This document shows positions 4,291 to 45,835 of a stretch of DNA of 55,235 nucleotides, piece after piece (positions within the stretch are counted from its first letter, which is position 1; each line of letters opens with the position of its first letter). The notes below the pieces were generated by a model. It was not told where the DNA came from. It searched no databases and saw nothing but the letters and a program-made list of their open reading frames with translations. The stretch spans positions 1 through 55,235 of the forward strand of contig JAUCBJ010006961.1 in NCBI GenBank assembly GCA_032718475.1. Direction: 5' to 3'. Position numbers and translations under genes: made by a program. The stretch comes from Nemertoderma westbladi (lineage: Eukaryota; Animalia; Xenacoelomorpha).

Positions 4291-4292
4291 AA

Positions 4293-7399: not shown

Positions 7400-8345
7400 T
7401 GAAGGATGACAAAATACTTGTAGACACGACACGGACGGATCACCAGATAAGAAGGATACACTTTCCGGCGGACCGCCGGAAGTATATATCCAAGTTTCCA
7501 CTAAACACATTTAACTTACCTGATGACGTCGCTAATACTTACGTCGATCGTATAGTCAACCTTAAAGATTCTTGGACGGACACTTGCCGTAAATTGGCAT
7601 GGCTCAAACGTTTAAGACAATATCCAAAGGCAAACGTCGACTTACGATGATTGAGATTGACAGATGTGAAATTGAATTAATTCGACATTACCAATTGCGA
7701 TATTTCACAGGCGAATTTACATCTATCAATCAAGGTCAACCAATCAAGTCGTCACCCACCAATACTGAGTTGGAGTCCGATAATATATAATGGCTTAATT
7801 TGTCATAAATCTCGGCTCCAAAATATAGACTTTAACACGGACTTCAGGTATCCTAATAATACAACAACATCATGAACTACAGCGTCCGATGATACTGGCG
7901 CACATATATGACTTATACCTGCCGGGAGACACCACTGTCTGTCTCATTTACGTACAAGGTTTGTATTAATTAGATCCAGTAAAGCACTGAGTTCAGTGAC
8001 GCGTAATTAATTGTATTACTTGTAAGAAATTACATTCTAGAATAGGAACCCAGGAGATGAGTGAACTACCACAAGCGCGACTACAAGCATTCAGACCACC
8101 TTTCACTGAGACAGGGATTGTTTGCTTTGGTCCTATTGACACAAAACGTGGACATATACAAGTAAAACGTTGGGGATTGATATTCACATGTATGTCCAGT
8201 AGGGCAGTTCATATCGAACGTGTGGTAGATCTTTCCACTAACGCTTTTATACTTATACGACGGTGATTTATCGCCAGACGTGGAGTTGGAAAATGTTTGT
8301 ACTCAGACCAAGGTCAAACTTTGTTGGTCCTCGAAGTGAGATTGC
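7400..8345 (+). pseudogene. Degenerate BEL/Pao pol fragment (integrase region)
   Basis: SWTDTCRKLAWLKR; MSELPQARL...PFTETGIVCFGP...KRWGLIFTCMSSRAVHIE...LSTNAFI; FIARRG...YSDQG. Parallels the integrase at 40500-40780. Confidence 0.88.
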
Positions 8346-13527: not shown

Positions 13528-13620
13528 ATTTATTGGGTGATATTGTAGAATATTGAGCCCAATGTACTTTATGATGCAACGTGAGCATCCGCTCAGGGTA
13601 GAATATAAATTAATAAAGAA

Positions 13621-14600
13621 GCCGCATAATTCTGTGCCACATAATTTATTATACATTCTATTGCGAGCACTATCGCGTGAGTATACGCTTGCCGCACAAG
13701 TAATTTCATATTCTGTGCCGCATAATTAATTAAACATTCTATTGCGAGCACTATTACGTGAGTATACGCTTGCCGCACAAGTAATTTTATATTCTGTGCC
13801 GCATAATTAATTATACATTCTATTGCAAGCACTATTGCGTGAGTATACGCTTGCCGCACAAGTAATATTATATTCTGTGCCACATAATTTATTATACATT
13901 CTATTGCGAGCACTATTGCGTGAGTATACGCTTGCCGCACAAGTAATTTTATATTCTGTGCCGCATAATTAATTATACATTCTATTGCGAGCACTATTGC
14001 GTGAGTATACGCTTGCCGCACAAGTAATATTATATTCTGTGCCACATAATTTATTATACATTCTATTGCGAGCACTATTGCGTGAGTATACGCTTGCCGC
14101 ACAAGTAATTTCATATTCTGTGCCGCATAATTAATTAAACATTCTATTGCGAGCACTATTGCGTGAGTATACGCTTGCCGCACAAGTAATTTTATATTCT
14201 GTGCCGCATAATTAATTATACATTCTATTGCGAGCACTATTGCGTGAGTATACGCTTGCCGCACAAGTAATTTCATATTCTGTGCCGCATAAATAATTAT
14301 ACATTCTATTGCGAGCACTAATGCGTGAGTATACGCTTGCCGCACAATTTTATTTTACATTCTGTGCCGCATAATTAATTAAACATTCTATTGTGAGCAC
14401 TATTGCGTGAGTATACGCTTGCCGCACAAGTAATTTCATATTCTGTGCCGCATAAATAATTATACATTCTATTGCGAGCACTAATGCGTGAGTATACGCT
14501 TGCCGCACAATTTTATTTTACATTCTGTGCCGCATAATTAATTAAACATTCTATTGTGAGCACTATTGCGTGAATATACGCTTACCACACATTTAATTAT
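13621..14600. repeat. 81-bp tandem array, about 12 units, in the Ngaro 5' leader
   Basis: GTATACGCTTGCCGCACAA recurs at 13681, 13762, 13843 and onward to about 14574. Confidence 0.95.
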
Positions 14601-15089
14601 ATGTGCCACGAAATTAATTGTACATTATGTTACAAGCATTACGATGATCGGCGTATATATATGCTTACAACACAATTATTGATTACTAAAAACGAGTAAT
14701 ATGCGTACAATTAATGTTCAATTACACATCATGTTGTTGCATTATTGCATACATTTTTAGTCATGACACATTAAATTATGTAATCATTAAGCTTCTGCAA
14801 ATTTTCCACAAACGTATATTTACATTAATGGTGTCGCAATTAGTACAACAAATATAAATAATGCAATATATTATACATTCTTTCCCTGACATTATACATA
14901 TACATTATGCCCACTTTTGCTGACCAAGGACCAGAACACCCACGAAGGATAGACGATTGATAGCTAAATTCTAATAATGAAAGTCTGTGAAATCTCAGTC
15001 AGCCTGAACTAAAAAATCTGATATCATTCATCCACAGTATAACTACTGTGTACTCCTGCCTGCTGACCCCTGACTCCAGTCTCAACACA

Positions 15090-15263: not shown

Positions 15264-16061
15264 TAAACATGTTATCCCGTGCAATATCAGGAATAATAAA
15301 TATCTTTAAGGCATTGGGAAGTGAATCAGTTAGTCAATGATACAAGAAGAACTAATACTTCACTAGCGGACAGGTTTAGCGATTTGTTCCCTATATCTAA
15401 TAAATGGAACCAGACAGTTCAGAGGCTAGGCTGATATTATACATTGGTCGTTGACATTCCCACAAATAAATTCGGAAATTATCAGGATGTTGGACCGATA
15501 TTAACTATAAAGTACATGACCGCCACATATTATTATTATATTTGATTCAAATTACTTTATTGCATTAATTAATAATTAATTTAATTAAATAATTAATTAT
15601 TCATTATTGTACTATATAGCTCAATAATATAAACTCAAAATCTTTAACAATAATCGTAGATCAACCAAACACAACATTAACTACAACAATACAATACTAA
15701 TTTACATATTATTATAATAATTACTCAGTCTAATTTGATATAATCAATCGTCTCTCACCACTCACACATAACTAAATGTAACAATTTGCTTTAGAGTCTA
15801 GAGCCTTATACGACAAGTACTGTATAAGATATTATACGATAATATAAGACTAGGCCAAGAACTAGCTCAAGTCTAGCCCTAGTCATGTGTGTGTGCGTGA
15901 GTGTACCTGGCACTACTGGACTATTAAAATTAAAATTAAATTAAAATTAAATTTAAATTAAAATTTATTTCATTATTTTATTTAATCAATAAACATTTAA
16001 GTTAATAAATTTTATGAATACTGAGCTTTTATCATATTGCATATATGACTAGGCGAGGAAT

Positions 16062-17519
16062 ATGCCAGCTAAAAAACGATCTAGATCTGTGGTATTGAGG
16101 ACCACCGAGACACGTACTTATCCCAAACGAACTCGTACCTCAAGTTCGACTACAAATTCCAGAAATGCAATTTCTACTGAAACAGTTCGTGCAGTAGCCG
16201 TTGGCAGTTCAACAATGGAACAAGTGTCTGGAACAATTACAACAATTAGTCCAAGCGCCGGCGTACAAACTTCCCTTAATCAGACAATAGGAACTTCAGT
16301 TCCAAATAATCCACCTGGCAGTTTTGGAATCCCGAGTACCAGTTATCCTTACCCATACACCCCGATATCAACATCTACTCCAGGGTTTCCATACCAACAG
16401 CAACACCCAACGATGTACTATCCCACTGGATATCCGTCATTGCCTTACAACTTTTCTCAAGCTAATCTGATGGGACACAGCGTGCATCCAATGGTAAATC
16501 AACAGCCTCCTATGATGCACCCACCACCAATTCAATATCAACCAATTCTCCACCCTACAACAGCGCCGCCAGAATCAATTCCACAACCATCGAATGAAGC
16601 AACTTCTTTGGCAGGTGAGCCAGTTATTAATGTACAGGAATCATTATCGGGTTCAGGCCACAATAGGATAAATTGTAATTCACATATTATCCCAGTTGAT
16701 GCATTAATACCGTTGGACCTTAAGGAAAAGATATGGACGAATAAATATATAGACTTATCATCATTTCTAAATAATCCCATGGCACCTAAAACAAATAAAC
16801 GAATCCCATTACAGTTGTCAGCCAATAATACAGAACATGGAAATCAGCCTACTCTGATTTTTGATTCCGAGAATATAGTAAATGACATAACAACCTTCGA
16901 ACGATGGCTATTGGCATGGAATTTGTTCTCGGCAATTTATGAACAGAAGTTCCCAGCTGAGACAAAACATCTAAGAAAATACGTAACCATCGTGAAGGAT
17001 GTCAAGGACAATGGTGGGGCATGGCTCCTCTACGACGAACGTTTCCGACAATGTCGTCAGAATGAACCGTCAAGCTATTCGTGGGGTGTAGCTATTCAAG
17101 AAATAAGCCTCATGGCTACCAATAGGAAAGTGGGGGTGCTTGTAGTACCATTTGGTTATTGCCATATTTTCCATAAGGGTGGTAGATGCATTCATTGCGA
17201 TTACAGACATGAGTGTCCTAATTGCGGTTCATCCCATCGTCTAATGAAATGTCCTCACCCTTTGGCTAACGATACCGGTAATTATCTCCAACCCTTTCCA
17301 AGAGCCGGTTTCCACTCAAGAGGCCATCGTAGTACCTTCCCAAGAAGGGGTGGAAACCGGAGATATTACTTGCGTGGCCGAGGCAGCAATCACACAGCTG
17401 GAAGCGGATCCGGGGTCAACCGAGGTGGTAACCGTCGACCTGGGGCTGTGCCCGGAAGTCGTGAATTCGGTAATAACGGATCATCAAGACAGCCACTTAT
17501 ATCTTCCTACGCCAATTAA
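16062..17519 (+). CDS. Ngaro ORF1, gag-like protein with Cys/His finger
   Basis: 485-aa ORF with KIWTNKYIDLSSFL, WLLAWNLF, WLLYDERFR and the finger CHIFHKGGRCIHCDYRHECPNCGSSHRLMKC. Confidence 0.88.
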   Translation: MPAKKRSRSVVLRTTETRTYPKRTRTSSSTTNSRNAISTETVRAVAVGSSTMEQVSGTITTISPSAGVQTSLNQTIGTSVPNNPPGSFGIPSTSYPYPYTPISTSTPGFPYQQQHPTMYYPTGYPSLPYNFSQANLMGHSVHPMVNQQPPMMHPPPIQYQPILHPTTAPPESIPQPSNEATSLAGEPVINVQESLSGSGHNRINCNSHIIPVDALIPLDLKEKIWTNKYIDLSSFLNNPMAPKTNKRIPLQLSANNTEHGNQPTLIFDSENIVNDITTFERWLLAWNLFSAIYEQKFPAETKHLRKYVTIVKDVKDNGGAWLLYDERFRQCRQNEPSSYSWGVAIQEISLMATNRKVGVLVVPFGYCHIFHKGGRCIHCDYRHECPNCGSSHRLMKCPHPLANDTGNYLQPFPRAGFHSRGHRSTFPRRGGNRRYYLRGRGSNHTAGSGSGVNRGGNRRPGAVPGSREFGNNGSSRQPLISSYAN

Positions 17520-19127
17520 ATGGGACAAACTAAGGATATGGCTTGAAGGATATACAAAGGAGTTAATAGATTATCTACGAAATGGTTTTTTGCATGGTTT
17601 TAGATTACATTACCAAGGTCCATTAGTTACAACCATATCTTCCAACTCACTGTCCGCCAAGACTCATGCAATGGTAGTGGATCAGAAACTGACAAAAGAA
17701 ATCGAAGCAGGGCGAATGGCTGGGCCATTCAATGAGCCTCCATTCAAAGTGTATCATATAAACCCTATAGGTGTGCGACCGAAGAAAGATCCAAATCAGT
17801 ATCGAATGATACATGATCTGTCAGCCCCCTACAATGAACTGTCAGTAAATTATAACATACCACGGGACAATGCATCAGTGACTTATTATAAAGTTGAAGA
17901 TGCAATTGCTATTATACGTAAATTAGAACGCGGTTGCTTTATGGCCAAAACGGACATTGCATCAGCATTTCGGTTAATACCAATTTCACCTTTAGATTAT
18001 TATTTAATGTGTTCAGAATGGAAAGGTAAATATTATTATGATAAATGTTTGGAAATGGGGGCCAGTTCCAGCTGCTCAATTTTCGAGAAGTTATCTACAG
18101 CCATGCAATGGATTGGAAAAAATAAATTATTAATTCCAAACTTAGTCCACATTTTGGATGATTTTTTCATGGCTGCCAATGATCGAAACACGTGTTTAGG
18201 ACAACTGCAGGCATTTCAAAAAATGTGCCATGATGTAGGTATTCGTTATCTGCCGAAAAAACTATTGGTCCATTTCAGGTAATTACCTTTTTGGGTATCG
18301 AGCTAGATTCAATGAATCAAGTCGCCAGACTTCCTATTGAGAAGTTACAAAAATCGTTTTCGGTCATTAATAACATTAAATCTAAACGGTGGGTCACAAA
18401 ACGTGATCTGTTGTCAGCGATAGGATTATTAAACTTTGCCTGTCAAGTGATTATTCCGGGCCGAGCCTTTTTACGGAGGCTGATTTATCTGTCTACCACT
18501 GTTACTCGTTTACACCATCGAGTCCGACTAAAGAAGTGGGCGAGAGCCGATCTCAATGCCTGGGAAATGTTCTTGAAACACTATAACGGTTGTACAATGT
18601 TTATTGATGACTTCTGGACATCCAATGATACAATTGAACTCTTTTCAGATGCTGCACAAACTAAGGGTTATGGGGCTATTTTCGGGTCACAATGGTTTTA
18701 TGGTGAATGGCCTGATCGTTGGAAGGAGTGCAGCAATATTTCTCTTCTTGAATTGTACCCAATTATGTTGATGCTCGAGATTTGGGGCCCGCTGCTGATA
18801 GGAAAAAGGGTCATTTTCCGTACAGATAATGAAGGACTGGTATCAATTTTAAATAACAAATCCTCCAAGGACCACTATATTATGATATTGGTGCGCAAAA
18901 TTGTAATAGCATCAATGCATCATAACCTTTTATTCCGAGCCAACCATATACCCGGAAAGCTTAACTCTAAATGCGATCTTCTTTCACGTCTACAGGTAGA
19001 ATCATTTATGGCAATTTCCCCGAACGCCAACAAGGAACCAACGCTAATCCCTCGGGATCTACTGCCCAACGATTACTTCTTCGATACACACAACTCATTG
19101 ACGCGGCGTGGGAGGAGACTACTTTGA
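17350..19127 (+). pseudogene. Ngaro ORF2, reverse transcriptase/RNase H with a single 1-nt frameshift
   Basis: YRMIHDLS, MAKTDIASAFR, HILDDF, FSDAA, LLELYPI, FRTDN, HIPGKLN..CDLLSR. Adding one C near 18244 restores GIPLSAEKTIGPFQVITFLGIELDS. Confidence 0.9.
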
Positions 19128-19960
19128 TTTCATATGCAAACATATGGAGCAAGCTGCGATCGTTTCTATCGCAAACAATGAATACACAACTCACACTGCC
19201 TTTAGATGTAACAATGCTAGGGTGTTTTATTGCATATTTGGACTCGATCAACCTTAGTAGGGCTACAATTTTAAATTATATGTCGGCTATAGCCATGCCT
19301 CATCGATTACTTAATATGACAGACCCTACCAAATCTTTTCTTATTTCTAGAGCTTTGAATGGTTTAGGTAAATCCAATATATCGGTAGATTCGAGACTTC
19401 CTATCACAAAACCAATTTTATCACGAATGTTGCATGTGTGCAGTTCTGTTTATCCTGATCCTTATACTAACTCGTTACTTAGATCTGTATTTATATTAGC
19501 TTTTTATGGTTTTTTACGAGTAGGTGAATTCGCACCAAAAAAAGGTACTGACGAAGTGGTTATAAATAGAACAGATCTACAATACGACGGACCTAGACTT
19601 ATTATTACTATTAGAAAGTACAAACATCAAAAACACCCTTATGTACCAGCTAAATTAGAAATAACAAACAACCCTGAGCATAACCCAATCGGTATTATTC
19701 AGGATTATCTTGAAAAACGTCCAGACAAAGAGGGGCCGTTATTTATATGGCGGTCAGGTGACATTGTTTATAGGAACGAGTTTTTGTCAATGTTAACCAA
19801 AGTCCTTGGTTTTCTAAATTTATCTACAAAGCTTTATAAGTCTCACAGTTTTAGAATCGGCGCTGCCACAGAAGCGGCCCGGGAAGGATTATCTGATATT
19901 CAGATTAGAGAAAAGGGTCGATGGTCCTCTAATGCCTTCTTGAAATATATTCGTCACTAA
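18971..19960 (+). CDS. Ngaro ORF3, tyrosine recombinase
   Basis: GFLRVGEF (R), SHSFRIGAAT (HxxR) and GRWSSNAFLKYIR (catalytic Y); the true start is uncertain. Confidence 0.93.
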   Translation: MRSSFTSTGRIIYGNFPERQQGTNANPSGSTAQRLLLRYTQLIDAAWEETTLISYANIWSKLRSFLSQTMNTQLTLPLDVTMLGCFIAYLDSINLSRATILNYMSAIAMPHRLLNMTDPTKSFLISRALNGLGKSNISVDSRLPITKPILSRMLHVCSSVYPDPYTNSLLRSVFILAFYGFLRVGEFAPKKGTDEVVINRTDLQYDGPRLIITIRKYKHQKHPYVPAKLEITNNPEHNPIGIIQDYLEKRPDKEGPLFIWRSGDIVYRNEFLSMLTKVLGFLNLSTKLYKSHSFRIGAATEAAREGLSDIQIREKGRWSSNAFLKYIRH

Positions 19961-21495: not shown

Positions 21496-22749
21496 CTATA
21501 CCCTGATTTTCATCTCAACGCCATACAGGCTTTCGTTATGCGAGTAGGCAACCCAAGTAGGAGCTCCTCTCCAAATTGATGTCTCGTGAAGCAAAATAGG
21601 ACCAGTGAGGTGACTACAAAAATGAGGGCTTTTTAGGCCCTGTCTGTCGACGTAGCGTTCATTGCGACCATACCACCAGCCGACTGCATTGTTGTCCGGG
21701 TTGTCGGCATTGGCACTTAATCTACTGGTGGTGCATGTCCATCTAGAACCGGTATTATCTCGATCATAGGTAGTAAATTGACGATCAGAACCAGATATTA
21801 CACCCCTTGTAAGATCATCACCTGCTGTTCCATGAAATCCAGCAACATTCATAGTGTAGTTGGTCAGCGCCGAGCCAACACTGAAACTATCATATATAGC
21901 ATACGCATTGGTTGACTGATGATGGTACTTCTGTTTGCCATTTGCATCAGTTTGTTGGTTGAGATAAGGTATCCCACTTCCCCATTCCCCTGGGGGTTCC
22001 GTTAGAGTTTGATTACTAAACAAATACGCAATTGATACTCCTTGATTATAATAAAAAGGCGCAATCGGAACTCCAGAATACCAAAAATCTATTTTGAGTT
22101 GTACACCACCTTTACTGAGTCGAGAAATGGTTTCAAGGCCAAGCCAGAAGTTGCCGGAAGTGTCTCCAAAACCCTTAACATACTCATCCCAACCTTTCTC
22201 CCATATATTAGACGGTGTTTCATCAACATATTCCCCATCTTTCACAACCAAATGCGAACTCATGATTACCAACCAAGGGCCATAATCGTGCAACTCTCCA
22301 CTAACGGCTTGAAGTTTAATATAATCTTCTTCGCTCGAATCTTGCGATGTAGGGGGAATATTCATGAATGAATAATGGTCTTTATTCACTCTAAGCTTGT
22401 CAACATTACAGCGTATTTTACCATTGAGACCATAAAACTTATTCTCGACAATTTCATACCGCAAATCATATTCTTCTACACTTAGTGGTTCACGTTGTTT
22501 TGTGAGATTCTTTAAATTATCGCAGGGGTGTAGAATTTCGTCTAGCATTGTGTTATCTAACCCCCCTGCAACCTGTTTATATCTATCTATTGCCTCCGTA
22601 AGCAATGCTCTTTCTAATTCTTTTACTGCGTTATTTACTCTCGTAGTCGCCAGTTGTCTTCCAATGCAATAATATATATTGCAGAGGAGAAGGAGAAGCT
22701 TCATATTATCCATATTCATGTTTTTATTTGGAAAGTTATATAGTTGCAT
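21496..22749 (-). CDS. Secreted fibrinogen-related domain (FReD) protein
   Basis: Signal-like MKLLLLLCNIYYCIG; FReD motifs GPWLVI, WDEYVKGFG...NFWLGLETISRL, YAIYDSFSV, GTAGDDL, FTTYDRDN, GWWY and VEMKIR. Probable splice acceptor TTTCAG at 22766-22761; the start may be a downstream Met. Confidence 0.9.
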   Translation of the reverse strand: MQLYNFPNKNMNMDNMKLLLLLCNIYYCIGRQLATTRVNNAVKELERALLTEAIDRYKQVAGGLDNTMLDEILHPCDNLKNLTKQREPLSVEEYDLRYEIVENKFYGLNGKIRCNVDKLRVNKDHYSFMNIPPTSQDSSEEDYIKLQAVSGELHDYGPWLVIMSSHLVVKDGEYVDETPSNIWEKGWDEYVKGFGDTSGNFWLGLETISRLSKGGVQLKIDFWYSGVPIAPFYYNQGVSIAYLFSNQTLTEPPGEWGSGIPYLNQQTDANGKQKYHHQSTNAYAIYDSFSVGSALTNYTMNVAGFHGTAGDDLTRGVISGSDRQFTTYDRDNTGSRWTCTTSRLSANADNPDNNAVGWWYGRNERYVDRQGLKSPHFCSHLTGPILLHETSIWRGAPTWVAYSHNESLYGVEMKIRV

Positions 22750-23052: not shown

Positions 23053-24248
23053 TGTAAAAGCTTTTGCGGAATTAGCTGGTTATTTTTCCCGCAAAGTACT
23101 CTGTAGTTGGTTTAATGGACATAAAAAGCCGTTTCCTTACTGTACTGGTGTTTTAGTGGACATAAAAAGCCATTTCTTCTGTATGTGTACTTTAGCGGAC
23201 ATAACTAGCAATTCTATGTCGGAATACGCTAAATCCTCTTGAAACAGTGTAGTTACTATGACGACAGCTAACAGCTGATCTGTACACGTGGAGCTTTTCC
23301 TTTGTTCTCTGTTCTTTCTTTGTTTGGTCAACCAATCAGAGCGTTTTTTGACTCTGTGTTGGAGATTGTATACAGAAACTCGTGCAGTTGAGTCAGTATG
23401 TGTATTTTGTCCACAGCCAGAAGACCGGCTTTGGAATCTCTGTGTTTTCAGGCTTTAGCCCAACCTTAGTAGGCTTAATCACAGAAACGTATATCTGTTA
23501 TCATAACAATTCATACCTTAACAAATCAATCATAACATAACTCACCTAATCATATTGTCAACTACAAACACCGCATTTTTACTGCTATTTACTGTCGGTC
23601 ATTAATTATATCGGTTGATGGAATATTATTATATTTGGATAATATCGATCAATAATCAGAAACCCCAATCTTCTTGATATACTGAAGGTTAGAGAGACCG
23701 GTTACATATAACAATTGCGACTTACATTAAAGTGGTTTTGGAGTGAATCTAATGCTATTTCATAGGCACTACATGAGTCGGTTGTTGTGCTCTTTATATG
23801 TGACTAAAATTAGTGAAGGTCGGCAGATCGGTGTGCAGCATTGTGCAGTAGTGTGTATGATTGTGACTGATAACAAAGCATCTCCTAAAGAATGCGCTAT
23901 ATACGTGAATCCATAGCCATCCCGTTGTGTCTAGTTTAAGTCATAACTCTGTTTACATATTTAGAGTGCCACGTCCTAAAGGAACTGTTAATATTTCCCG
24001 AAAGTGAATAATATTTGTCAGAGATTATATATTACGATCAGTCGAATAATACAGTAGGCCTACACCGCAATCAGGTTAGGCTTCCGAATCCAGTCTCCTG
24101 GGAATATCCAGCGGGTGAATGGTCGCGCATAGACTGGCTTTGGCTAATGTAGTGTATCAAATACTCGTCATAGGCTAAAGTCGATTTACAATCTAGAAGA
24201 CATCCAAATTTGGCAGGTTAAACTGCTAAAGGTCTGAAAGCGCGAACA
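23053..24248 (+). repeat. 5' LTR of outer BEL element (1196 bp)
   Basis: Direct repeat of 44642-45835, with roughly 16 differences counted by eye. Confidence 0.96.
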
Positions 24249-24596
24249 ATAACAGATATTGATTTCAGATTGCAGTGTAGGCAATAAATGCAGTTTAATA
24301 TTGTTCTGGTAAGAACAGTAACAGTTATTGCTTCTGTATTGCAGTAGGCAATAAAGCTGAAGTACCGGTCAACCGGTACCCAGTAGGCCTAACTACCTAA
24401 CTACCCGAACCGGTACTTACAGCAGTACAGGTACAGCAGTATTATTCGATTGTGATATTGTATACTGGTAGGCCTTAATATTTAATCAGGGACGGCCGCC
24501 CTGGTTTTTTATTGAGATTTTACTTGTTTCTGTCAGGTTTTATTTATTTGTAGGTTAATATTGAGCAGAAGACGTGTAAGCCTGCCCAGATTGTAC

Positions 24597-26504: not shown

Positions 26505-27949
26505 ATGTTTGACACAAAGCAAAACCTGTCAGACAGTCTCTTAGATACAACCATCTGTGACCCAGATAGGAGTGTGGAATGTGTGAGACCGAAGTTCAAC
26601 TCACCTCCTACTGTAAGAAAGATCATCCCTCCAGTAGTAATATCAGATCCTAGGCTAGTCCAACACCGTAGGTCTATCATAGGCACTCGAGCTCAGGTCA
26701 AGCGGGACCAAGAAGCAGCGGAACAGCAGCAACACTCGAGCCGAAAACTTATTTCTCAGCGGCCCGACAGCTCCAGTAGTGAGGATACTGTAGAGCTGAC
26801 ACCCGAGCACGGAGCAAAGATGGCAGATGCGGTTTATTCGGATCCCCTTCTCATCCTTCCTGCAGCCGTACTCACTAGGGTATTGATTGCGGTGGAGGAA
26901 CACCAGATTGATTGGGCGAGAAGTAAGCGATCGACTAAGGATAGTTATGCGGGATACACAAGGGAAGAACTGAAGTCTATTGTCGAGTCGCAATGGAACT
27001 TCCCCAGACCCGGACTCCCGTTTGACTTATCGGAAGCTGCCTGGGAAGACATACACAGGATGGGAGTGACAAAAGAAACCAGCGATCCAGCTGTGTGGAA
27101 GAGGTCAGCAGCCGGATACGTACAGGGATTCTTCAGCTCTATGGAGCGATTAAAGGAACAACTGTTTCGACAACCCCAAGGACCTCAAGAGCAGGGAGAG
27201 CTGCTTTATCAAGTTAGAGAAAGAATTCTATGAATCAGACTAATCTTATCGGCCTTTGAGGAGGCAGGACACGTCGTTGCAAGTTGCCGTAAAGACTTGG
27301 TTTCAGCGGGTGAGTCTCCAAGTTCAAGGAACTGCCCAGTGGAAATCTCAGCCCTCAACCCATGGAGAATCAACAGATGCTACATTTTCACAAGTGGAAA
27401 GTGAAGCGACGGCGGAGAAACCTTATGAGAGGGACGCTATTGACATCTATCTGTCAGATTATCAACGATTTGTAGGTGACGAAGAGTTGAGGAGACGGCC
27501 ATCTGGACTTAGCCCTAATAGTGAAGGAGCCAAGCTTGTGTTGGACGCAATTGATGCGGATATGATAGCTGCGAACCAAGCTAAATTTGATGAACGCCTC
27601 CGCATCGCTAGAGTCCAAGAAGAACAAGTAAAGAAAAAATGTATAGAAGACAGAAAGACAGCGGCAGTGGCAGCAGCAGTGGCAGAGGCAGAAGCGGAAA
27701 GAAAAGCGGCAGCAGCAGCGGCAGAGGCAGAAGCGGAAAGAAAGGCGGTAGAAGTGGAAAGAAAGGCGGTAGAAGTGGAAAGAAAAGCGGCAGCGGCAGC
27801 GGCAGAGGCAGAAGCGGAAAGAAAAGCGGCAGTGGCAGCGGCAGAAGCAGAACGGAGAGCGTCTGAAGAGATCGCCCAACTAGAATTGGAAAATATTCAA
27901 GAAAATCAAGACTGCATAAATAAACAGTTAACAGCTAGTAATATGCAGA
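26505..27949 (+). pseudogene. Outer BEL gag, N-terminal part (frameshift near 27230; interrupted by nested element)
   Basis: ORFs 26505-27233 and 27256-27954, the latter with an AEAEAERKAAA coiled-coil repeat. Removing 27950-35000 and one TSD joins it in frame to ORF 35005-35748. Confidence 0.75.
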
Positions 27950-28478
27950 TGTGACGGGATCTACGGATCCCGGTTTATCCGTTGGGTTTTCTATCTACGC
28001 GTCCCCGCCGTGTGTGAAAGGTAAAAGAGTTCTGGTGTTCGGTTATATGTATAAGGTATAATATAGTTGATATATATAGTATAGTATGACACGGTTACCG
28101 GTAGATAAGTATGATGGCGGTAGCGGACGGTGATAGAAGTCACCGTTCCACCCTACTGAGCTAACTGAGTAAACTGACTAACTGATTGCATCGACCGGTA
28201 ATATATATTGCACGGTTTGGCCTTGTTACAGTACCTAGTCGATGCTGTCCCCCCATTGGCTAATATCCCTGTTGGCACCCTTTGGAGTGTTTCCCTTCAC
28301 TCCCTGTGTTCTCTCTCGGTTAGGGGTTTGGCCCCTGACCCCTATTGTGTTTCTCCTTCCCACTTTATTGGGGTGACACGGGGTTGATATTGGTAATCAA
28401 CCTCGTGCTCCCAATATTGCTTTACGGTTTAATGGCTCACTTTATGGGGTTTGGTGAGGCGGAATTGATTCGCTAACA
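27950..28478 (-). repeat. 3' LTR of nested element
   Basis: Direct repeat of 34472-35000 (about 5 differences seen); adjacent to the PPT. Confidence 0.96.
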
Positions 28479-28949
28479 CTCCCCCCCATGCTATCTTCCC
28501 GGTGAGAAGATAGCATCAACCTCTAAGTGCGCTTCAATTCCGCTGGAACTCGATCTATTATCGGGTGTGGGGTGGGATTATTTTCTTGGAGTCGGTTTTC
28601 CAGGCCGCTCCCTATGGGTATGATGTCACTACCCTCTGGCGTCTCGTGTCGGGCCGATCGTGCGCTTCTCTCACACAATTTTTGTTTCCCCAACACTCTC
28701 ACCACTCTAACTCCGCTCTCTGACTCAACTCGCTCTTACCCTCTCCCCACACCTGAATCGCACTCTTCTCTCTCGCCAACAGTTCCTTTCACTATCTCCT
28801 CTCTACTCCCTGCCACTCTTTAAGGCCCTGACCTCTAATGCTACCCCTGTGCTATCATACTATCTACCTACTACTCACTTGCTAACTATCTAACTCTCTT
28901 ACTAACTCTAACTATCTCTCTAAGCCTACTAACTTTAACTCTAACTCTT

Positions 28950-29843: not shown

Positions 29844-32800
29844 TCATCTCCTGGCATCAAAATGCCACCTCTCTCCTTGTTGTCTCCCGCCGGCAGAATG
29901 AATAGAAAGTGAAAGAACAGGCAGAACAGAAGGTACAACAGCAGTCCTACCCCTCTCCATCCTGCCCCCCCTCTCGACCTCCCCCCCCGTCGGCACGCCT
30001 CTCAACCGGACCGGCGTCTCCTCCGGACACTCCCCCGGACACCCCTCCGGACTATTGTCCTCCTGACACTTCACCGGACACTCCTCCGGAGTGTAGTCCC
30101 CCGGACACCCCGCCGTCCGCTCCCCTCCATCCCCACACCGACACCCGCTGGGAAGTCTATTATCCTCCACCCTCTCTCTCATTGTTACTTTCCTGTCTGG
30201 CTCTACTATCTCCTCCGGCTTCTTATCTTCGTCCTCTGTGTCTACGGTGCCTGGTAACATGCACCCATGGTAACATGTCGTTACTGAACGACCGCCCTCT
30301 CCTGATATCTTCACTGGTACTACCCCGAGTAGTACTTTTCTCTTCTTCTCTTCTGTTGTGCTTGTAGCTGCTGTTTCTCTACACTCTCCGGATCAGTGTC
30401 CTTCTACCACACATCGATGACATAGTCCGTTTGCGTCTGTGTAGGCTATACGATCTTGTTTGGGCAACGCTTGCCAGTGCTTACAACTCCTGGTCTTATG
30501 TGTTCCGTCTCGATGTAATTGACATTCGAATCCTGGATTATAGCGTTCCCTGTATAGTCCCTCACGTATCGCGCCTAGGTTTATATGTACCGATTTAGTG
30601 TTTTGGTTGTCTGTATTCGGCCTACTGGGTACATTGGGATTATGTTTATTTATGTTGTTATTTTCTTTCTGTCCCCGCCACGGTGTGGCCCTACTACCAG
30701 CTAACTGTAGACTAGCAGTCCCCTGTGTGGCCGCATGTGGTAGTGACTGTCCCACTCCCGAGAATGGGTCTGTCGGATTATGTTCGGGTTTAGGCCAGTT
30801 GTATTCGATCTTTGGCGCCTTCCCCAAACTATCCTCACTATAGACTGGGTCTGTTATTAGTTCGGCTTCGTAGTTCAAGAAGCTCGACATTTCTTCTAAA
30901 CCCGGTTCCGCACCCTTCTTTTCCCGTGTGGAGAAAGCGATTTTCCTCCACTTCCTTCGTAACCAGATCGGCAGTGCCTGCGCTATTGTGGTGATGTTGT
31001 TAGACGCGTTGAGTTCGTATGGTGCGTCTAGCATCTTTAACACGATTAACGCCTTCTCGACCTTGTTCGCAAAGGTCCTTATGCTAACGGGATTATCCTG
31101 TAGGCCACCCGATGTTATGCCTCTCAGGGTTTGCCAGATGATCTTGGCCGGGTGCCCGTATTCCCTGTCCAATGCCCGCCATGCTGCCGTGAAGCCGCCC
31201 TCGATGCCCTGGTATTGCCTCACGATGTCGTATGCTGGGCCTCCTGTATATACTTGCAGATATTTTAGGCACTCCGCCTGCGTCAAGTTCTTTGTTAGTA
31301 TTTCGTTACTATACATGCGCCGAAACTGTAGATATTCTTCCGGCCTACTCCCATCGAATTTAAACGGTTCCACAGGTGGTAACTCGATCCTAGTTTTTAA
31401 TGCATCGATTAATGTGGCCATTCCCATCGCTTGCGCTTCTAATGGGTTCGATGGATGTTGTATAGTTTCTCCTGTTGGGTACGGTCCGTCCATCCTATTT
31501 GTTTTTGACTTTGCTTGTTGCGTCGGATATATCATTGGGGGTAACGGCCCCCTCCATATTTCCGTGTCGCACGATCTGCTCTCGTCCAAGGGGTTCGATG
31601 TTCTCGCTCCTATTGGGGTATATTGTTGATATTGTGATGGGGGAATGTCACCCTGTCCCCCCCCCCCACCGGTATGTTTAGTACTGGGGTTGATGTTAAT
31701 ATATTGGGGCCCATGCACCTATCCGCAATAATCCCCCCTCCCCTGGGTATATGTAATGTCCTTGTGTATTATAGTCATGCTGCTGTACCGATATAGGCCT
31801 ACCTACCTCTCGCCTACCTACCGGTATGTACTCCGCGACTTCCGGGTTTAATCCCGTCGTTCGCGCTACCCTATCGCCTACTCTATCTCTCCCAGCATGG
31901 CCTATAATAGTATGTGCAGTAAGGCCTACAGTATGTCCTGCAGTCTGCATGTGCCCTTCCGAACCGAAGTTTATTCTTCGCGAATCTCGAATCTCCCCGC
32001 GACTACCGCACTCTCGATCGGCAGCTATATCCCGTCGGGAAGCCTCCCTTCGATCACCTATCCTGCTCTCGTCTTCGTATCGGTACATCCTGTACCCCTC
32101 TCTTGGCGTGCGGTGCGTTTCTCCAGGGCGACGGCAATCTCCCGAAGTTCGACCCCACTGACTCCCTACCTCCATCTCTACTATCGACGGCTCGCTATCC
32201 GTCCTCGCTCTCCTATCGTTCGTGGCGACACTTCTTCTAATATCTTCTCTTCTTCTCTTTTCGACCTCTCGGTTAAACTCTACTAATCTTCTTCTATCTT
32301 CAACCCCTCTATTAAACTCTACTAATCTTCTCTCTTCTGACTGGGCTCGACGTTCCGTCGCCCGCCCTCTCGCGACGTCAACTTGTCTCTCTCTGCTCGA
32401 TCGCACGCCGCTGGGGATACTCGCAATCCCCCTATTACTCTCCATCGCCGGGTGTTGCGGTTTACCTAATTCGGCCCGCGCATTATCCGCCGACGCCTGT
32501 GGGACACTCCCTGCCCCCCCTCTCTCGCTACTAATCCCTCGCGGTGGGGTGCCCGTAGCCCCTCCCCACCCGCTACTTCTAACTTCACTATCTCTTACTA
32601 CACTTCTGCGTCCCTCTTGTCGGACACTCTCTACCCCCTTTCTCTCGCCACTAATCTTCTGTGGTGGGGCGCCCGTAGCCCCCCCCCCCCCACCCGCCAC
32701 TTCTAACTTCACTACCTCTTACTACACTTCTACACCCCTCTTGTGGGGCATTCTCTGCCCCCCTCTCTCGCCGCTAATCTCATGTGGTGGGGCACCCATA

Positions 32801-34336: not shown

Positions 34337-34471
34337 CTTCGTCTTTGGTGGCTGGCACCCACAGTCTGTCAGGGCAGTTGGTTGGATCTAGTTCTATCAC
34401 TGTCAGACTGTTAGGGCAGCTGCTAGGATTCTATCACTGTCAGGGCAGCTGGGTGGATCTAATTCTATCAC

Positions 34472-35000
34472 TGTGACGGGATCTACGGATCCCGGTTTAT
34501 CCATTGGGTTTTCTATCTACGCTTCCCCGCCGTGTGTGAAAGGTAAAAGAGTTCTGGTGTTCGGTTATATGTATAAGGTATAATATAGTTGATATATATA
34601 GTATAGTATGACACGGTTACCAGTAGATAAGTATGATGGCGGTAGCGGACGGTGATAGAAGTCACCGTTCCACCCTACTGAGCTAACTGAGTAAACTGAC
34701 TAACTGATTGCATCGACCGGTAATATATATTGCACGGTTTGGCCTTGTTACAGTACCTAGTCGATGCTGTCCCCCCATTGGCTAATATCCCTGTTGACAC
34801 CCTTTGGAGTGTTTCCCTTCACTCCCTGTGTTCTCTCTCGGTTAGGGGTTTGGCCCCTGACCCCTATTGTGTTTCTCCTTCCCACTTTATTGGGGTGACA
34901 CGAGGTTGATATTGGTAATCAACCTCGTGCTCCCAATATTGCTTTACGGTTTAATGGCTCACTTTATGGGGTTTGGTGAGGCGGAATTGATTCGCTAACA
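34472..35000 (-). repeat. 5' LTR of nested element
   Basis: TG...CA ends; on the minus strand a TATA-like run near 34725 is followed by repeated TCAGT(T) initiator-like motifs. Confidence 0.96.
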
Positions 35001-35004
35001 GCAG

Positions 35005-37097
35005 ATGATGAATCGATCTACTCCCAAAAGACAGGGATATACATCATCTGATGAAGGCGATACCACCGATCCTGAAGGCGGAGGAAATAGATCTCGTCTA
35101 AGCAGACGTAGAAGAATGTCCCACCGTCAGAAATTGCCTGATTTGCCCCCAGCTGTTAGAAGACAACTAACTAACACAGGTTTAGGTAGTACAGAACCCA
35201 CAGACCAAGTAATTAAAATAGAAAGACTCCCTACTATAGTAGATGAGCCTGAAATAATTAGGCCTGTTCTTGAAATCACCCCTTCGGTGATAGAGACACC
35301 TGTGCTCCCAGAACCTACCTCTAAATTCCCTTTGCACAGTACTAAACTTCCTGTGCCCCACAAAACAACCCCTGAGACAGTTCCTGTCCTGGACTCCGAG
35401 CGAAATATCAATGATTTGTCGCCCGTTGTCTCTCGTCTACCCGCTACTACGTTGGCGGCTCCCGCTTCGGCGGTCGAGTGGGTGGAGGAGAGACGGCGGG
35501 GGATGGATCTCCTGCTCGGGCAGATGCAGGAGACTGTTAAGCAGTTCAAGGGCACAGTAAGGGAAAGTAGGTTAGAGTTGCAAGAAGTGCAGCAAAGTAT
35601 CGCGTTAGAATGCGATAAATTAGTAAATACACAAAAGGGTATACCACCACCCCCTGTAACAATGTGTCAACCTGTTAGGTCTGAAGTATTTCATGCGCAA
35701 GGTGTGGAGCCTACATCTATACTGCTATCGAAGTGGAAACTCCTATAGTAAACCCTATTAAGGGTAATTATAAACCTGTTGACAATGATATTCCATATAG
35801 ACTTGATAATAATCCGAGAAATTTATATACCGATAACTCGATATTAAATAACACGATGGCCCAAGAAAGTTTTACGCGTCAAATGGCTAGAACCGAAGCC
35901 CGTCAAGCGGTAAAGGTGGGAGAGATCGTCAAGTTCAATGGAGATGAGATGAAACGGTTACCTTTTAATGAATATTACAAAGATAACATACAGAACTCTG
36001 TGCTATCTAACGGAGAGAAACTTAGATTCCTCATCGAGTGCTTGGAAGGATCTCCCAAGTTAATGGCGTTAAAGTTTATTGGACATCCAGATGGATTAAG
36101 ACAAGTTTGGGATACCCTAAACATCAGGTATGGTAATAGGAATAACATAGCTAGGTATTTGTATGCAAAATTGGTAGCGCCCCGAAAATTCATTAGCAGT
36201 GGGATTATAGAGTTTTCCGATGAAATTCAGGAGATCTGTAGACAATTAGATTGGCTAGGTAAGTCTCATGAATATCAGAGTTCTATGGTTATTGGAGCCG
36301 TGGCCTCTACTTTACCGAAGGGTGGAGTAGGTACACGCTGGGATAAGAAAGTGTTATATATGATGGAACAGCAACGACGAGACCCTACCATGGCTGATCT
36401 CATGTCATTCTTAGATGGAGAAGTGAAATTACAGCTCCTAAGGCAGTCCAGAGAGAAGACACCGGAAAACAAGGTAAGTGAGAAACCCTTTTCTAGGAGA
36501 AAGGTAACACCAGTGTGTTATACCGACGACGGCGAAAGCCAGGCTTCTCAAGGAGAGGACAGCGGGAAAGACACTGAAAGATCTTATTATGTCAACAAAA
36601 CGCCTAAAGACGTAAGTAAATTCAGGTCTCGAACCAATGACAGGAGAGAACAGGTAAGAAAAACCCCTCCTACGTCTCCTAAGAGAATTCAGGTAAGAAA
36701 GCCCGAAGAAAGAACGAGTGTGCACAACGTTACTCAAAATAAGGTAAGTAACATCAAACCGAAATGTGCGCTGTGTGACGGGCCCCACCGTTTGAATGTG
36801 TGTGATGAATTCCTAAAGAAATCATTAACGGATAGACGGGAAGTCATGTGGGATAAGCGGTTGTGTTATAATTGCCTCAGACAAGGACACCAACGGCGAA
36901 CCTGTTACTCCGACGCAAGGTGTGCAAAGTGCGGTGCGAAACATCATATATTGTTGCACACTGAATTCGAGCGAAACAGCCCGAGTCAGGTAAGTGAGTC
37001 CGAACTACATGTCCAATTCAGTGATGTGAATGACACTGACCAAAGTTCTGAGATGGAAGACGATGGAGTTCCGACGAAGACGAATCCTGTTACATGA
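35005..37097 (+). pseudogene. Outer BEL gag, C-terminal part
   Basis: IVKFNGD, KLRFLIECLEG, WDTLNIRYG and three BEL zinc knuckles CALCDGPHRLNVC, CYNCLRQGHQRRTC and CAKCGAKHHILLH; frame change near 35740. Confidence 0.9.
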
Positions 37098-40000
37098 TAA
37101 ATACCGCAGTGTATCGAGCACTTACGTATGAAAAAGACACCGACAGCGAGCTCACCCTAACTACTTCTGACAGACAACCATCTTGGAAAGCACCAACTTC
37201 CAATGTAGGAATCCGAGAATTTCCTGTAGTACAGTTAAGGGTCCACGGACCTACAAGGAGTTATATAGTGAACGCCCTCCTTGACTCCGGTAGTACAGGA
37301 ACATTCATCGACAAAGAACTAGCCGAAGACATATTTGCTGGACAACCCAAGTTCCAAACTAAGTTAAACATGTCAGGAATTATGCAGGTTTGGAAATCTA
37401 CAGTGATAGCTGATTATTATGTAGGTGCGTTGTCCACCCCCCAGGATGAACTAGGAGAACACAGCATAAGGTCAGTAAAAATGGTGGCGATAAAGAACTT
37501 CGCTACCAGCCAAGTGGAACCTTATAACTGGGATGAGGACGATTTCACCCAGCAGCTTGATATACCTAGATTCAACACCGATTACCCTGGAGTGCAAATA
37601 CTCATCGGTCAAAATGCGCATGAGGCGCTCGAGACATTGGAGAAACGGCCTGCTCAACCGCAACCACTACAAGCCTATGCGGGAAGAACTAGAGTGGGTT
37701 GGTACTTTACTGGCCCTTCCCGTAGAACTCTCATGGAAAGATTACCGAAAGATCAGGTATATCAAGTAAGAGAATGGGAAGTTGAGAGCAGTGAGTTAGA
37801 CGATCCAACTGAGGGAACTCCATACTCCTCAGATAACGACGATATCCACCAACTCTTCGACGAGGAGAATACAATTGATCTCCTTACGGAAAACGAGACT
37901 TGGCAAAACCAAGTAAACCTATGTCAGCTCATTCGTCCATCGGAACGAGACGACTATAACGACGAACTGAATGACGTCATTGAACGTTATAATGCCAAAA
38001 CTCGGGATGAACACGCCGTACGATTCTTTACTCAAGAGGCTGTAGAGCCCAATTCCTATGATAAGGCCCTATCGGTAGAAGAAGAAAGAGCCAAGCAGAT
38101 CCAAGAGACAACTACACGTTTTCTTAAAGATCAAGGTAGATATGAAATCGGTCTACCTTTCCGAAAGCGAGAACCAAAGTTCATCAACAATAGACCCTTG
38201 GCGGAGAAAAGAATTGCTCAACTACATCGACGCCTTACGGCAAATTCTTCAGCTAAAGAAATGTATCAAACGCAGTTGAAGAAATTTATTAGCAAGGAAT
38301 ATGCGGAGCGAGTACCGGAAGAAACACCTATAACTGAGAGAACGTATTATTTAACTCACCATTACGTTCCCAAACCCCGGTAAACCCCATGAGGTACGAG
38401 TAGTGTTTGACGGCTCCGCCCTCTACATGGGCCAATCCCTTAATTCCGAATAGTTACCCGGACCCAACTTACTCCAATCCTTGTTGGGAATACTCTTAAG
38501 ATTACGACAATTTTCAGTCGCTTTCGCCTCAGATATAGAAGGCATGTTCTTACAAGTCAAGGCACTGGATAGGGATCGAGATAGCCTACGATTTCTGTGG
38601 TGGCCTGAAGGAGACCTCAACCAGAAACCGGTGGAGTACTGGATGACCATCCAGGCTTTTGGGATAATCTCAAGCCCTTCAAACGCCTGTTCAGTGGTGC
38701 GCACCACTGCGGATAACAACCGGGAAGCCTTCTCTAAAGAGGTGATCGACAACATCAAACGTGATATATACATGGACGACAATCTAAAGTCCCTTCCATC
38801 AGTCGAAGAAGCCATTGATGTCGCTAAAGGAACGGTAGAGTGCTTAAAAAGAGGTGCATTTCGATTAACTAAATTCACCAGCAACTCCCGTGAGTTTCTG
38901 GAGTCGATCCCAGTAGAAGATCGAGGAGCGAAAGACCTAGATTTAATCAAGGATGATCTTCCAGAAACCAAGACACTTGGTTTGAAATGGGACACAGAGA
39001 GAGATATCCTGTTTTTCCAGCTAAAACAGCGAGATAATCCAGTGCGGACTAAACGGATTTGTTTAAGTATCCTGAGCACTTATTTCGATCCATTGGGATT
39101 TATTAGCCCAGTTATATTGATTGCTCGGAGTTTAGTACAACAAATGTGGCTTGAAAACCACTCATGGGACGATCCACTTAAGGGAGAATTATTAAAGAAG
39201 TGGATGAAATGGGAAGATTCTCTACCAGCCATCGAGAACTTTATAATTTCCCGTTCATATTTTGGTCATGTTCTCCCTACGTATTCCTATCAACTCCATG
39301 TGTTTGGAGACGCCAGCGATATGGGAATAGGTATAGTAGCCTACCTAAGAGTGGAAACTCCGGATGGAATCAAAGTCGCCTTGGTTACCTCTAAGGCATT
39401 GATAAACAACAAGTTGAAAGTTCCTCGAGCGGAGTTAAAGGCGGCTCTATACGCTACAGCCATCGGCCGGAATGTAACCGAACAGATCTTCGTTTCCAAC
39501 AGAGTAGCCATTATACTTAGTCGCACGAAGATGGATCAATGGAGACATTGCCCCGGAACGATTAACCCAGCAGACATCGCCTCCAGGGGAGCAACTCCAC
39601 AAGAACTGGTAGATACTCCAGACTGGTTAGGTGGACCCGACTTCCTCTACAAAGAAGAAGAAGAATGGCCTCCTCATCTTACTACGGCAGAGATTAGACA
39701 GGCCAAGGGAGCAGAGAAAGTCAAACCTAAAACTCGGGCGAGTAAATCGAAGTTATTTAAACCTATGGTAGATCTGTCTGTACTACATACTTCCGGAGAC
39801 GACGTTTTGGATCAGAAACCCACAGCCATAAATAAGTCTGTTGTGGAAATCCGTGAGAAGGATTGGAAATCTGGAATACCAGACGTCTCGCAAGGACTCT
39901 CACCTCTCCTGCAGAGAGCGATACATCACTACAGTTCCTGGAATCGGCTCTGTAAGGCCGTTACATATTTAAAACGATGTTTTCATCATCACTACTCCGG

Positions 40001-41567
40001 GACGAAGATCAATAGTGATACCGCTCCACTGACATCGGTGCAGGTCCATGTTGTTAAAGATCTTCCCAAATATAAGATATCCAACAGGTTTCTGAAGGAG
40101 AAGATCAGTTATCAGGAGCATGAAGAAACCAACAAGCAGATGCTGAGACTCCTGCAATGCTATGATGATTCCTATAAGTATTTCCTGTTTTTGAGAAATC
40201 CACAGAGGCGCTTAAGGGATCGTTTCTCTAGCACAATGATAGATGGGTTGATACGTGTTGGAGGAAGATTAACGAATGCTCCATTATCCTTTGACACTAA
40301 GTTTCCCATACTCATTAGAAATCTTGAAATACAAGTCAAGATGATTGTAGATGTTCACAGCAAACTTTATCATGCTGGTAGAGAACGAGTTCTTAGCGAA
40401 ATTCGAACTCGCTATTATTTTTATAAACCCCGTAGAGCTCTGAACCAAGTTCTTAGGAACTGCATACCCTGTAGGAAAGCATTCAGTAGGCCTTTAACAC
40501 AGCGAGAGGCAGAATTACCTAAGGAACGAGTAAGCTTCTATGAACCACCCTTTACTAATACCGGTGTAGATTTATTTGGTCCTATTGAAGTGTATCGTGC
40601 TAGGACTATAGTCAAGAGATGGTGTGTCATCTTTGTTTGTATGACTTGTAGAGCTATCCATCTCGATATGGTGAACGATTTGTCTACCAACATCTTCCTA
40701 TTAAGCTTACGACGACAGATCGCTCGCTTTGGAACTAGTAACACGATGAGATCTGATAAGGGAACGAACTTCATTGGTGCCAACAATGAAATCAAAGCTT
40801 ACGTCAAAGATTGGAACCAAGGACAGGTGGATGATCAGCTTAGGGTAACAGCGTCTAGCTGGACCTTCAACGCCGCCGACGCCCCTTGGTGGGGAGGAAG
40901 TTGGGAGAGATTGATTAGAAGCGTGAAGACCGCATTTCACTTTATAGTGCCGTGCCGCGCGTATCTCACCGACGAACTTTTGCGGAAGTTAATGGAGGAA
41001 ATCGCCGCCTATCTCAACGAGAGACTGCTTATGCCAGTCTCATCGAGTCCCGATTCCCTGGAAGCGCTAACACCCGCGCACTTCCTACTGAAGAAACCTG
41101 TAGCCATGCTCCCACAATCGGAAATCACAGACGGAGACGAATACTGCCGGCAAACTTGGCAACTTATGCAGTTGTTATCCCGTCGTTTCGCTGACCATTT
41201 CGAAAAACATTATCTGCCCACGCTACAACTTCGAACTAAGTGGTTTGCGCAGCAAGAAAACGTCAGCGCTGGAGACATGGTCCTTATTGTGGATTCAGAT
41301 CTTCCATGTAAGCGGTGGCAGACAGGTCGTATCATCGAGACTCACATCTCGGATGACGGTTTGGTGCGATCGGTAGAACTCGTCGTCATGCAACGTAACT
41401 TCAAGAAACCGGGAATTGTCTTTGAGACACAGCAGCTCAATCGCCCAGTTGGTCGTTTATGTTTACTGGAAAGAGACAGAGAACTCTCCGGAAACTATGG
41501 AAGACAAGATACTCTTCCCACGACCACCTCCCTAATCCAACAAACATCTAGGGACTCCCCAGCTTAG
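37094..41567 (+). pseudogene. Outer BEL pol: aspartic protease, RT, RNase H, integrase (disrupted)
   Basis: ALLDSGSTGTFI; YYLTHHYV..RVVFD; SDIEGMFLQV; YMDDNL; LHVFGDAS; PRAELKAA; HAG..CIPC; GVDLFGP; SDKGTNF; WWGGSWERLIRSVK. Frameshift near 38380, stop at 38451, and the WTDS part of RNase H appears deleted. Confidence 0.94.
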
Positions 41568-44641: not shown

Positions 44642-45835
44642 TGTAAAACTTTTGCGGAATTAGCTGGTTATTTTTCCCGCAAAGTACTCTGTAGTTGGTT
44701 TAACGGACATAAAAAGCCGTTTCCTTACTGTACTGGTGTTTTAGTGGACATAAAAAGCCATTTCTTCTGTATGTGTACTTTAGCGGACATAACTAGCAAT
44801 TCTATGTCGCAATACGCTAAATCCTCTTGAAACAGTGTAGTTACTATGACGACAGCTAACAGCTGATCTGTATACGTGGAGCTTTTCCTTTGTTCTCTGT
44901 TCTTTCTTTGTTCGGTCGACCAATCAGAACGTTTTTTGACTCTGTGTTGGAGATTGTATACAGAAACTCGTGCAGTTGAGTCAGTATGTGTATTTTGTCC
45001 ACAGCCAGAAGACCGGCTTTGGAATCTCTGTGTTTTCAGGCTTTAGCCCAACATTAGTAGACTTAATCACAGAAACGTATATCTGTTATCATAACAATTC
45101 ATACCTTAACAAATCAATCATAACATAACTCACCTAATCATATTGTCAACTACAAACACCGCATTTTTACTGCTATTTACTGTCGGTCATTAATTATATC
45201 GGTTGATGGAATATTATTATATTTGGATAATATCGATCAATAATCAGAAACCCCAATCTTCTTGATATACTGAAGGTTAGAGAGACCGGTTACATATAAC
45301 AATTGCGACTTACATTAAAGTGGTTTTGGAGTGAATCTAATGCTATTTCATAGGCACTACATGAGTCGGTTGTTGTGCTCTTTATATGTGACTAAAATTA
45401 GTGAAGGTCGGCAGATCGGTGTGCAGCATTGTGCAGTAGTTGTATGATTGTGACTGATAACAAAGCATCTCCTAAAGAATGCGCTATATACATGAATCCA
45501 TAGCCATCCCGTTGTGTCTAGTTTAAGTCATAACTCTGTTTACATATTTAGAGCACCACGTCCTAAAGGAACTGTTAATATTTCCCGAAAGTGAATAATA
45601 TTTGTCAGAGATTATATATTACGATCAGTCGAATAATACAGTAGGCCTACACCGCAATCAGGTTAGGCTTCCGAATCCAGTCTCCCGGGTATATCCAGCG
45701 GGTGAATGGTCGCGCATAGACTGGCTTCGGCTAATGTAGTGTATCAAATACTCGTCATAGGCTAAAGTCGATTTACAATCTAGAAGACATCCAAATTTGG
45801 CAGGTTAAACTGCTAAAGGTCTGAAAGCGCGAACA
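44642..45835 (+). repeat. 3' LTR of outer BEL element (1194 bp)
   Basis: Direct repeat of 23053-24248, followed by the TSD CGAAG. Confidence 0.96.

Follow-up and report, generated by a model that had tools for sequence, protein, structure and literature searches.

Organisation of the locus

The window, by which we mean the whole 55,235-nucleotide stretch of Nemertoderma westbladi DNA analysed here (contig JAUCBJ010006961.1), carries two nested LTR retrotransposons (Table 1). The outer is a BEL element on the plus strand, spanning 23053-45835 and bounded by 1196-bp LTRs; the best matches of its pol frame are in fish, corals, echinoderms and molluscs, at 36-42% identity. Inserted into its gag region, on the minus strand (35000-27950), is an inner element with 529-bp LTRs and a 5-bp target duplication. 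The two inner LTRs are 99.1% identical, and none of their five differences falls within the predicted helix described below.

The inner element is a gag-only member of the BEL/Pao superfamily, with the LTRs, TG...CA ends, target duplication, polypurine tract and DUF1759 gag of that group. The hallmark pol arrangement, PR-RT-RH-IN, is present in the outer element but missing from the inner, in which neither tblastn nor hmmsearch found RT, RNase H or integrase. Since it lacks pol, we regard it as a non-autonomous derivative that needs a helper. Its gag region (34387-29844) is split over several frames. Its gag identity with the outer element is 24%, so that the two elements represent different families, and with the gags of the BEL loci surveyed below it is 23-27%.

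Elsewhere in the window, matches to RT, RNase H and, weakly, tyrosine recombinase lie in overlapping frames at 16053-19960, a layout that we take to be that of a DIRS-like element. A minus-strand frame with a Fibrinogen C-terminal domain (21496-22749) stands just to the left of the outer element. At 4920-6482 and 7771-8326 there are another RT frame and a BEL integrase fragment (48% to the outer pol), inverted duplicated blocks occur between 2110 and 8447, and tandem arrays with units of 81 bp and 30 bp occupy 13548-14677 and 4234-4863. No tRNA genes were found in the window.

Table 1. Features of the two nested elements; positions are those of the window.
Feature	Position	Strand	Remarks
Outer BEL element, 5' LTR	23053..24248	+	3' LTR 44642-45835; duplication CGAAG
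Outer 11-nt segment complementary to post-LTR site	23491..23501	+	
Outer primer-binding site position	24249..24259	+	Offset 0, no TGG; degenerate second copy of LTR end and site ~24311-24345
Outer pol frame	38454..41567	+	RT-RNase H-integrase; Peptidase_A17, Integrase_H2C2, DUF5641; query for relatives
Target-site duplication GCAGA, inner element	27945..27949 (left); 35001-35005 (right)	+ (left)	
Inner element, 3' LTR	27950..28478	-	Pair of 34472..35000
Polypurine tract adjoining inner 3' LTR	28479..28487	-	
Inner BEL gag part (DUF1759)	30393..31718	-	Pfam PF03564, E 2.4e-10
Leader repeats, three of ~34-37 nt	34366..34474	-	Each begins with ACA + 9-mer; copies at 34471, 34437, 34400
Extended helix, 3' arm (predicted)	34434..34462	-	In leader
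Inner primer-binding site position	34463..34471	-	GTGATAGAA; offset 0, no TGG
Inner element, 5' LTR	34472..35000	-	529 bp, TG...CA
U5 hairpin, 7 bp, U5-IR-like	34477..34494	-	Five bases before LTR end; pair probability 0.98; P 0.01
Competing local hairpin (predicted)	34644..34674	-	Core 34668-34649; -17.8 kcal/mol alone
Predicted self-primer segment	34652..34660	-	9 nt complementary to post-LTR site; role putative
Extended helix, 5' arm (predicted)	34662..34694	-	Partner 34462-34434; pair probability 0.90-0.99 in core (34687-34669)
Predicted promoter	34677..34729	-	TATA-like motif at 34729; four TCAGT initiator-like motifs

Complementarity between the LTR and the sequence that follows it

Neither element has a primer-binding site for the 3' end of a tRNA; a sequence-only reading of this DNA had reported no TGG site for the inner element, and no TGG occurs at offsets 0-5 after the 5' LTR in either element. 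Instead, the inner 5' LTR (35000-34472) ends TCACA and runs directly into GTGATAGAA at 34471-34463, the reverse complement of which lies within the same LTR at 34660-34652. The match is flush with the LTR edge, the next pair being a C-A mismatch. This arrangement too had been pointed out in the sequence-only reading, with a chance probability of about 2e-3, and base shuffling at offset 0 agrees (P 0.0016); dinucleotide shuffles with offsets 0-5 allowed give P 0.011. At nine perfect pairs, the inner match is the second-shortest among the 15 families compared below, which counts against self-priming.

The outer element does share this geometry, as had been claimed: a segment of its LTR matches the 11 nt that follow the LTR at offset 0 (P 0.0012). 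In folds of the whole region this duplex is thinly populated (0.007-0.29), which counts against its use.

Both elements also repeat the LTR end and primer site within the leader (34474-34366 and 24242-24345), the inner as three units and the outer as one degenerate copy ~70 nt further on. In the inner leader, the 9-mer GTGATAGAA recurs twice, after ACA both times (34437 and 34400). An exact 7-mer leader repeat of the site was not seen in the outside families. We speculate that such repeats are possibly by-products of strand transfer with an unremoved self-primer.

Predicted fold of the inner leader

Four TCAGT initiator-like motifs, noted in the sequence-only reading, begin 21, 30, 39 and 47 nt upstream of the LTR segment. 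With the initiator consensus and TATA spacing that we assume, transcription would presumably start near 34697; the promoter-like motifs and the extended helix together point to an RNA start lying 19-45 nt upstream of it. Folds of an RNA that begins at the TCAGT motifs put the nine pairs at the tip of an interrupted, bulged helix of ~33 bp (34694-34652 with 34434-34471), in which pairing is predicted to continue for ~24 bp beyond them. This second, extended helix has a GC-rich core and is unusual by comparison with shuffles or other LTR windows (P 0.007-0.011). The LTR-adjacent copy of the site is the preferred partner (0.72) for RNA starts at 34705, 34697 and 34688, while pairing with the second and third leader copies is predicted to be 7.7 and 14 kcal/mol worse. 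With the start set at the segment itself, the fold favours either pairing with the third leader copy or none at all; this counts against the model in that form, and the helix thus needs an upstream start.

The small 7-bp hairpin described around the LTR segment is indeed there, at 34668-34649. In the predicted ensemble only the helix tip toggles, between the primer-site helix (0.72) and the local hairpin (0.26), which lie 1.2 kcal/mol apart. The hairpin switch suggested from the sequence is therefore a prediction that holds for the inner element. As a general trait it was rejected: of 14 families (L081 left out), the inner element alone beats shuffles (Fisher P 0.75). Similarly, the U5-IR-like stem-loop just before the LTR end of the inner element (P 0.01) has a counterpart in 1 of the 12 outside families tested. 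Tf1-type elements are reportedly dependent on such a U5-IR stem-loop.

These results bear on whether the inner match is a chance occurrence or the relic of a local duplication-inversion, which we consider highly improbable. Such an origin would suit a match of 9 nt whose P is 0.011 once offsets are allowed, in a repetitive leader and a defective element. Against it stand the adjoining second helix, which is independent of the first (P 0.007), the near-identical LTRs and intact target duplication, which denote recent copying in an element with no TGG site, and the family-wide occurrence of the pattern.

Related BEL families

Searches with the outer pol as query yielded 95 loci, 79 of them from metagenome contigs and 16 from genome bins, and 15 regions were added from two bins; no relatives were found in viral contigs. 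Animal BEL/Pao elements (loci L080-L095) occur in several prokaryotic genome bins (handles G001-G005), with 45 matches in G002 alone, which indicates host DNA in those bins. Long-range direct repeats were present in 43 of the first 95 loci. Sixteen families were kept by hand, these being the ones in which the 5' LTR end could be fixed through a paired LTR or a sister contig; for L045 the end was fixed from a sister contig after its match was known. Left out were L127, with incomplete LTR ends, L083 and L093, as second members of counted families, and the L092/L130 LTR pair, which belongs to a separate element. This last, an LTR element on the opposite strand (L130, 10302-15021), is followed by a sequence that resembles what we take to be a Copia half-tRNA-Met site.

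A tRNA-type site is present in three of the 16 outside families (L044, L129 and L131), which have TGG at the primer position and a self-match of at most 4 nt. The site is lacking in the other 13, of which nine have a match to their own LTR across a predicted GT-AG intron and four have a contiguous match of 8-12 nt. A test of contiguous matches, applied to the 13 families defined first (a tRNA-type family among them), puts five at P <=0.05 (Fisher P 1e-6), compared with 0/13 in a 3'-flank control (P 0.99) and 2/13 in a same-sense control (P 0.054). An energy-based test is weaker (P 0.02 for 15 nt and 0.11 for 50 nt), which counts against the pattern, and the second helix, the U5 hairpin and the inner helix are not significant across the outside families (Fisher P 0.16, 0.27 and 0.54).

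A held-out set was drawn from 72 loci, of which 47 could be tested. A blind contiguous scan of these gave matches in 13 of the 47, against 8 and 5 in the controls. No tRNA-type motif from a short list was found in them.

In all, the distance between the end of the helix and the LTR edge is 0-5 nt, and 11 of 15 families have a helix of 10-12 bp. We read it as a self-primer since it lies near the LTR edge, takes the place of a tRNA site, varies on both sides from family to family and has this characteristic length. Priming by the element's own RNA in some form, in place of a host tRNA, is likely on this comparative evidence. The shared tRNA-independent mechanism proposed in the sequence-only reading from the two window elements thus gains good comparative support, given the 13 of 16 families that lack a tRNA-type site, and is still to be read as an interpretation. 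Its appeal to natural covariation was thin while it involved two elements; the covariation is supplied by the wider set of families. By a count made by eye, 16 of 22 families have a predicted primer with AC-3' at its end, and the other six have one that ends in T (position 34652 and loci L002-L138), which may reflect a cleavage preference.

It is improbable, in our estimation, that the helix is instead a structural or regulatory stem (serving packaging, translation or a dimer switch) and that priming falls to a host RNA that escaped recognition, for example a tRNA cut internally. Long-range stems do form in retroviral leaders, and the predicted two-state fold of the inner element would suit a switch. 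Half-tRNA priming, moreover, requires no TGG, according to the available part of one source (PMC6317226). Yet ~20 families have differing post-LTR sequences, each matched by its own LTR only, which a set of tRNAs would not track, and the stem is always at the primer position and is absent from the families with a TGG site.

Matches across predicted splice junctions

Many families have a perfect match of just 6-8 nt that starts directly after a pyrimidine tract and AG. Excision of a GT...AG interval lengthens the match to 11-15 nt in seven outside families, with predicted introns of 76-366 nt. All seven have consensus donors and pyrimidine-rich acceptors, where the search had required GT and AG alone (naive P 1e-11). 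In L138 and the L081/L083 family the match is 11 nt, three bases of which come from the first exon. In 7 of 13 outside families the matched segment opens with YYAG, which was considered as an initiator marking a Tf1-like 5' end; this reading was dropped because the match begins after an AG behind a pyrimidine tract and continues beyond a donor.

The specificity of these matches was assessed by pairing every LTR with every post-LTR segment among 15 families, comprising the 13 outside families without a tRNA-type site and both window elements. Junction matches of at least 11 nt occur in 9 of 15 own pairings and in 2 of 210 cross-family pairings, and both of the latter are between the related families L073 and L019. 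In the held-out set, 7 of 47 loci have such a match, against 0/47 in each of two controls, and all seven matches lie 0-4 nt after ACA, a feature absent from the search criteria. The tree places three of these seven loci as sisters to training families, so that independence is incomplete. Where both LTR copies are complete (L002, L007 and L138), the predicted intron is kept in both.

Neither window element clearly belongs to this type. The inner match is contiguous; neither a match across a GT-AG junction nor a pyrimidine-rich acceptor was found in the inner element. For the outer element the junction search gave only a weak 10-nt match with a non-consensus donor. Upstream of the primer segment, at 23396-23453, its LTR does contain a GTATGT resembling a donor and, at a distance of ~58 nt, an acceptor rich in pyrimidines; the match does not span them.

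In an RT tree (LG+G4, 25 rows), from which the inner element is absent as it has no pol, the contiguous-type families L038, L045, L087 and L088 are scattered among those of the junction type; the contiguous type requires five changes for five rows, at least three of them forced by starred branches. Three contiguous-type families have short LTRs (177, 180 and 320 bp). The scatter and the short LTRs fit repeated loss of the intron, with the direction of change not established by the tree. RT trees also fail to separate the outer element from a tRNA-type element, which counts against self-priming.

A model for self-priming

We propose, with moderate confidence, that the nine bases after the LTR bind a primer cut from the 5' end of the element's own RNA. 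In the inner element, transcription would begin at a TCAGT motif close to 34697. The first ~46 nt of the RNA would pair with the ~38 nt that follow the LTR, giving a bulged helix that closes with its final nine pairs at the LTR edge. On the pattern of Tf1, RNase H, supplied by the RT of a helper element, could then cut just 3' of 34652. This would free a primer of ~46 nt, whose 3'-OH, at the 3' end of the segment 34652..34660, would prime minus-strand DNA synthesis into U5. The sequence upstream of the cut would be restored through the copy of R at the 3' end of the RNA. In most relatives the helix would require splicing of the predicted GT-AG intron in the LTR; in the inner element and four outside families it is available in one piece, perhaps after intron loss.

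Alternatively, the primer could come from the 3' copy of R in the RNA, or a short transcript of the LTR alone could supply it in trans, with trimming or cutting to the helix end in either case. We consider this unlikely, while recognising what it would account for. An identical segment is present in the inner 3' LTR (28138-28130); AATAAA or ATTAAA occurs 1-50 nt after the segment in L081, L006, L038, L040, L138, L045 and L023; an acceptor with a poly(A) signal behind it is in keeping with terminal-exon splicing; and the intron would be inheritable from an unspliced 5' copy. The signal, however, does not follow the segment in the inner element, and the first in the outer element is 225 nt away. 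In addition Tf1, which in the available parts of the literature is the sole biochemically established self-primer, uses its 5' end.

We lean, by a little, towards a broader view: that a large branch of BEL/Pao dropped tRNA priming and has its primer built by the spliceosome. The LTR intron would be removed at one end of the RNA to create ~11 pairing bases and left unspliced at the other so as to pass the intron on. The window elements would be intron-less forms, to which the inner adds an on/off hairpin.

A primer assembled by splicing would couple reverse transcription to RNA processing and so offer host cells a control point; it also raises the question of what preserves an intron in a repeat whose copying passes through an RNA stage. 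Self-primed elements might, further, escape silencing by tRNA fragments. Self-priming would also account for the failure of tRNA-based annotation to find a primer site in such elements.

Comparison with known systems

The Belpaoviridae (Semotivirus), as defined by the ICTV, have LTRs of 0.2-1.2 kb, a polypurine tract and a DUF1759 gag, as is the case here, and share with the outer element PR-RT-RH-IN with Peptidase_A17 (PMC8742986). Their description includes priming by a host tRNA and a binding site of 18 nt for tRNA-Arg or tRNA-Gly, a site absent from both window elements; the same source calls their replication poorly understood (PMC8742986). A word look-up for PBS, tRNA and priming in BEL/Pao surveys (PMC554778, PMC6238403, PMC3118150) found nothing, and BEL/Pao self-priming is unreported in the available parts of PMC6238403 (clade names), PMC8220671, PMC3601003 and PMC5443660. 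No paper was found on self-priming or a spliced primer in BEL/Pao in a search whose coverage excluded most subscription journals, Repbase Reports and supplements, where an earlier remark is possible.

Published accounts of self-priming cover Tf1/Sushi, Tcn1 and, within Copia, the TAR lineage (PMC6317226, PMC4600332, PMC5341516, each available in part). In Tf1 the RNA's initial 11 bases pair with the binding site and cleavage by RNase H falls between bases 11 and 12, as reported in the accessible part of PMC7175516. The window elements resemble Tf1/Tf2 of Schizosaccharomyces pombe, Tj1, Tf1/Sushi and Tcn1 in having a post-LTR site complementary to their own LTR and no tRNA site, with pairing to their own R over ~11 bp, and the inner element is predicted to form a U5 stem-loop beside the site, as in Tf1/Tj1 (PMC7175516, PMC4600332, in the parts available). 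Tf1, however, belongs to Ty3/gypsy, and the domains of the window elements are those of BEL/Pao, not of a Ty3/gypsy chromovirus pol; they would work like Tf1 without belonging to Tf1/Sushi. In TAR/Houba/Osr-1, of the plant Ty1/copia group, self-priming was likewise predicted from complementarity between LTR and PBS, and these differ in being Copia elements of plants with no splice junction mentioned in the part of the paper available (PMC6317226).

If the model is correct, BEL/Pao would be the third self-priming superfamily, after Gypsy (Tf1/Sushi, Tcn1) and Copia (TAR). What is new here is a variant of known self-priming in a superfamily held to be tRNA-primed. Where Tf1 uses bases 1-11, as far as the accessible text goes, the inner element is predicted to have its primer segment ~38 nt from the start of the RNA and a long bulged helix upstream of that segment, a departure from Tf1 that counts against the model. 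Its binding site also recurs in tandem within the leader, unlike in the Tf1-type systems. Most surprising is the form predicted for most of the BEL relatives, in which the primer spans a splice junction, an arrangement not described for Tf1 in the same accessible text.
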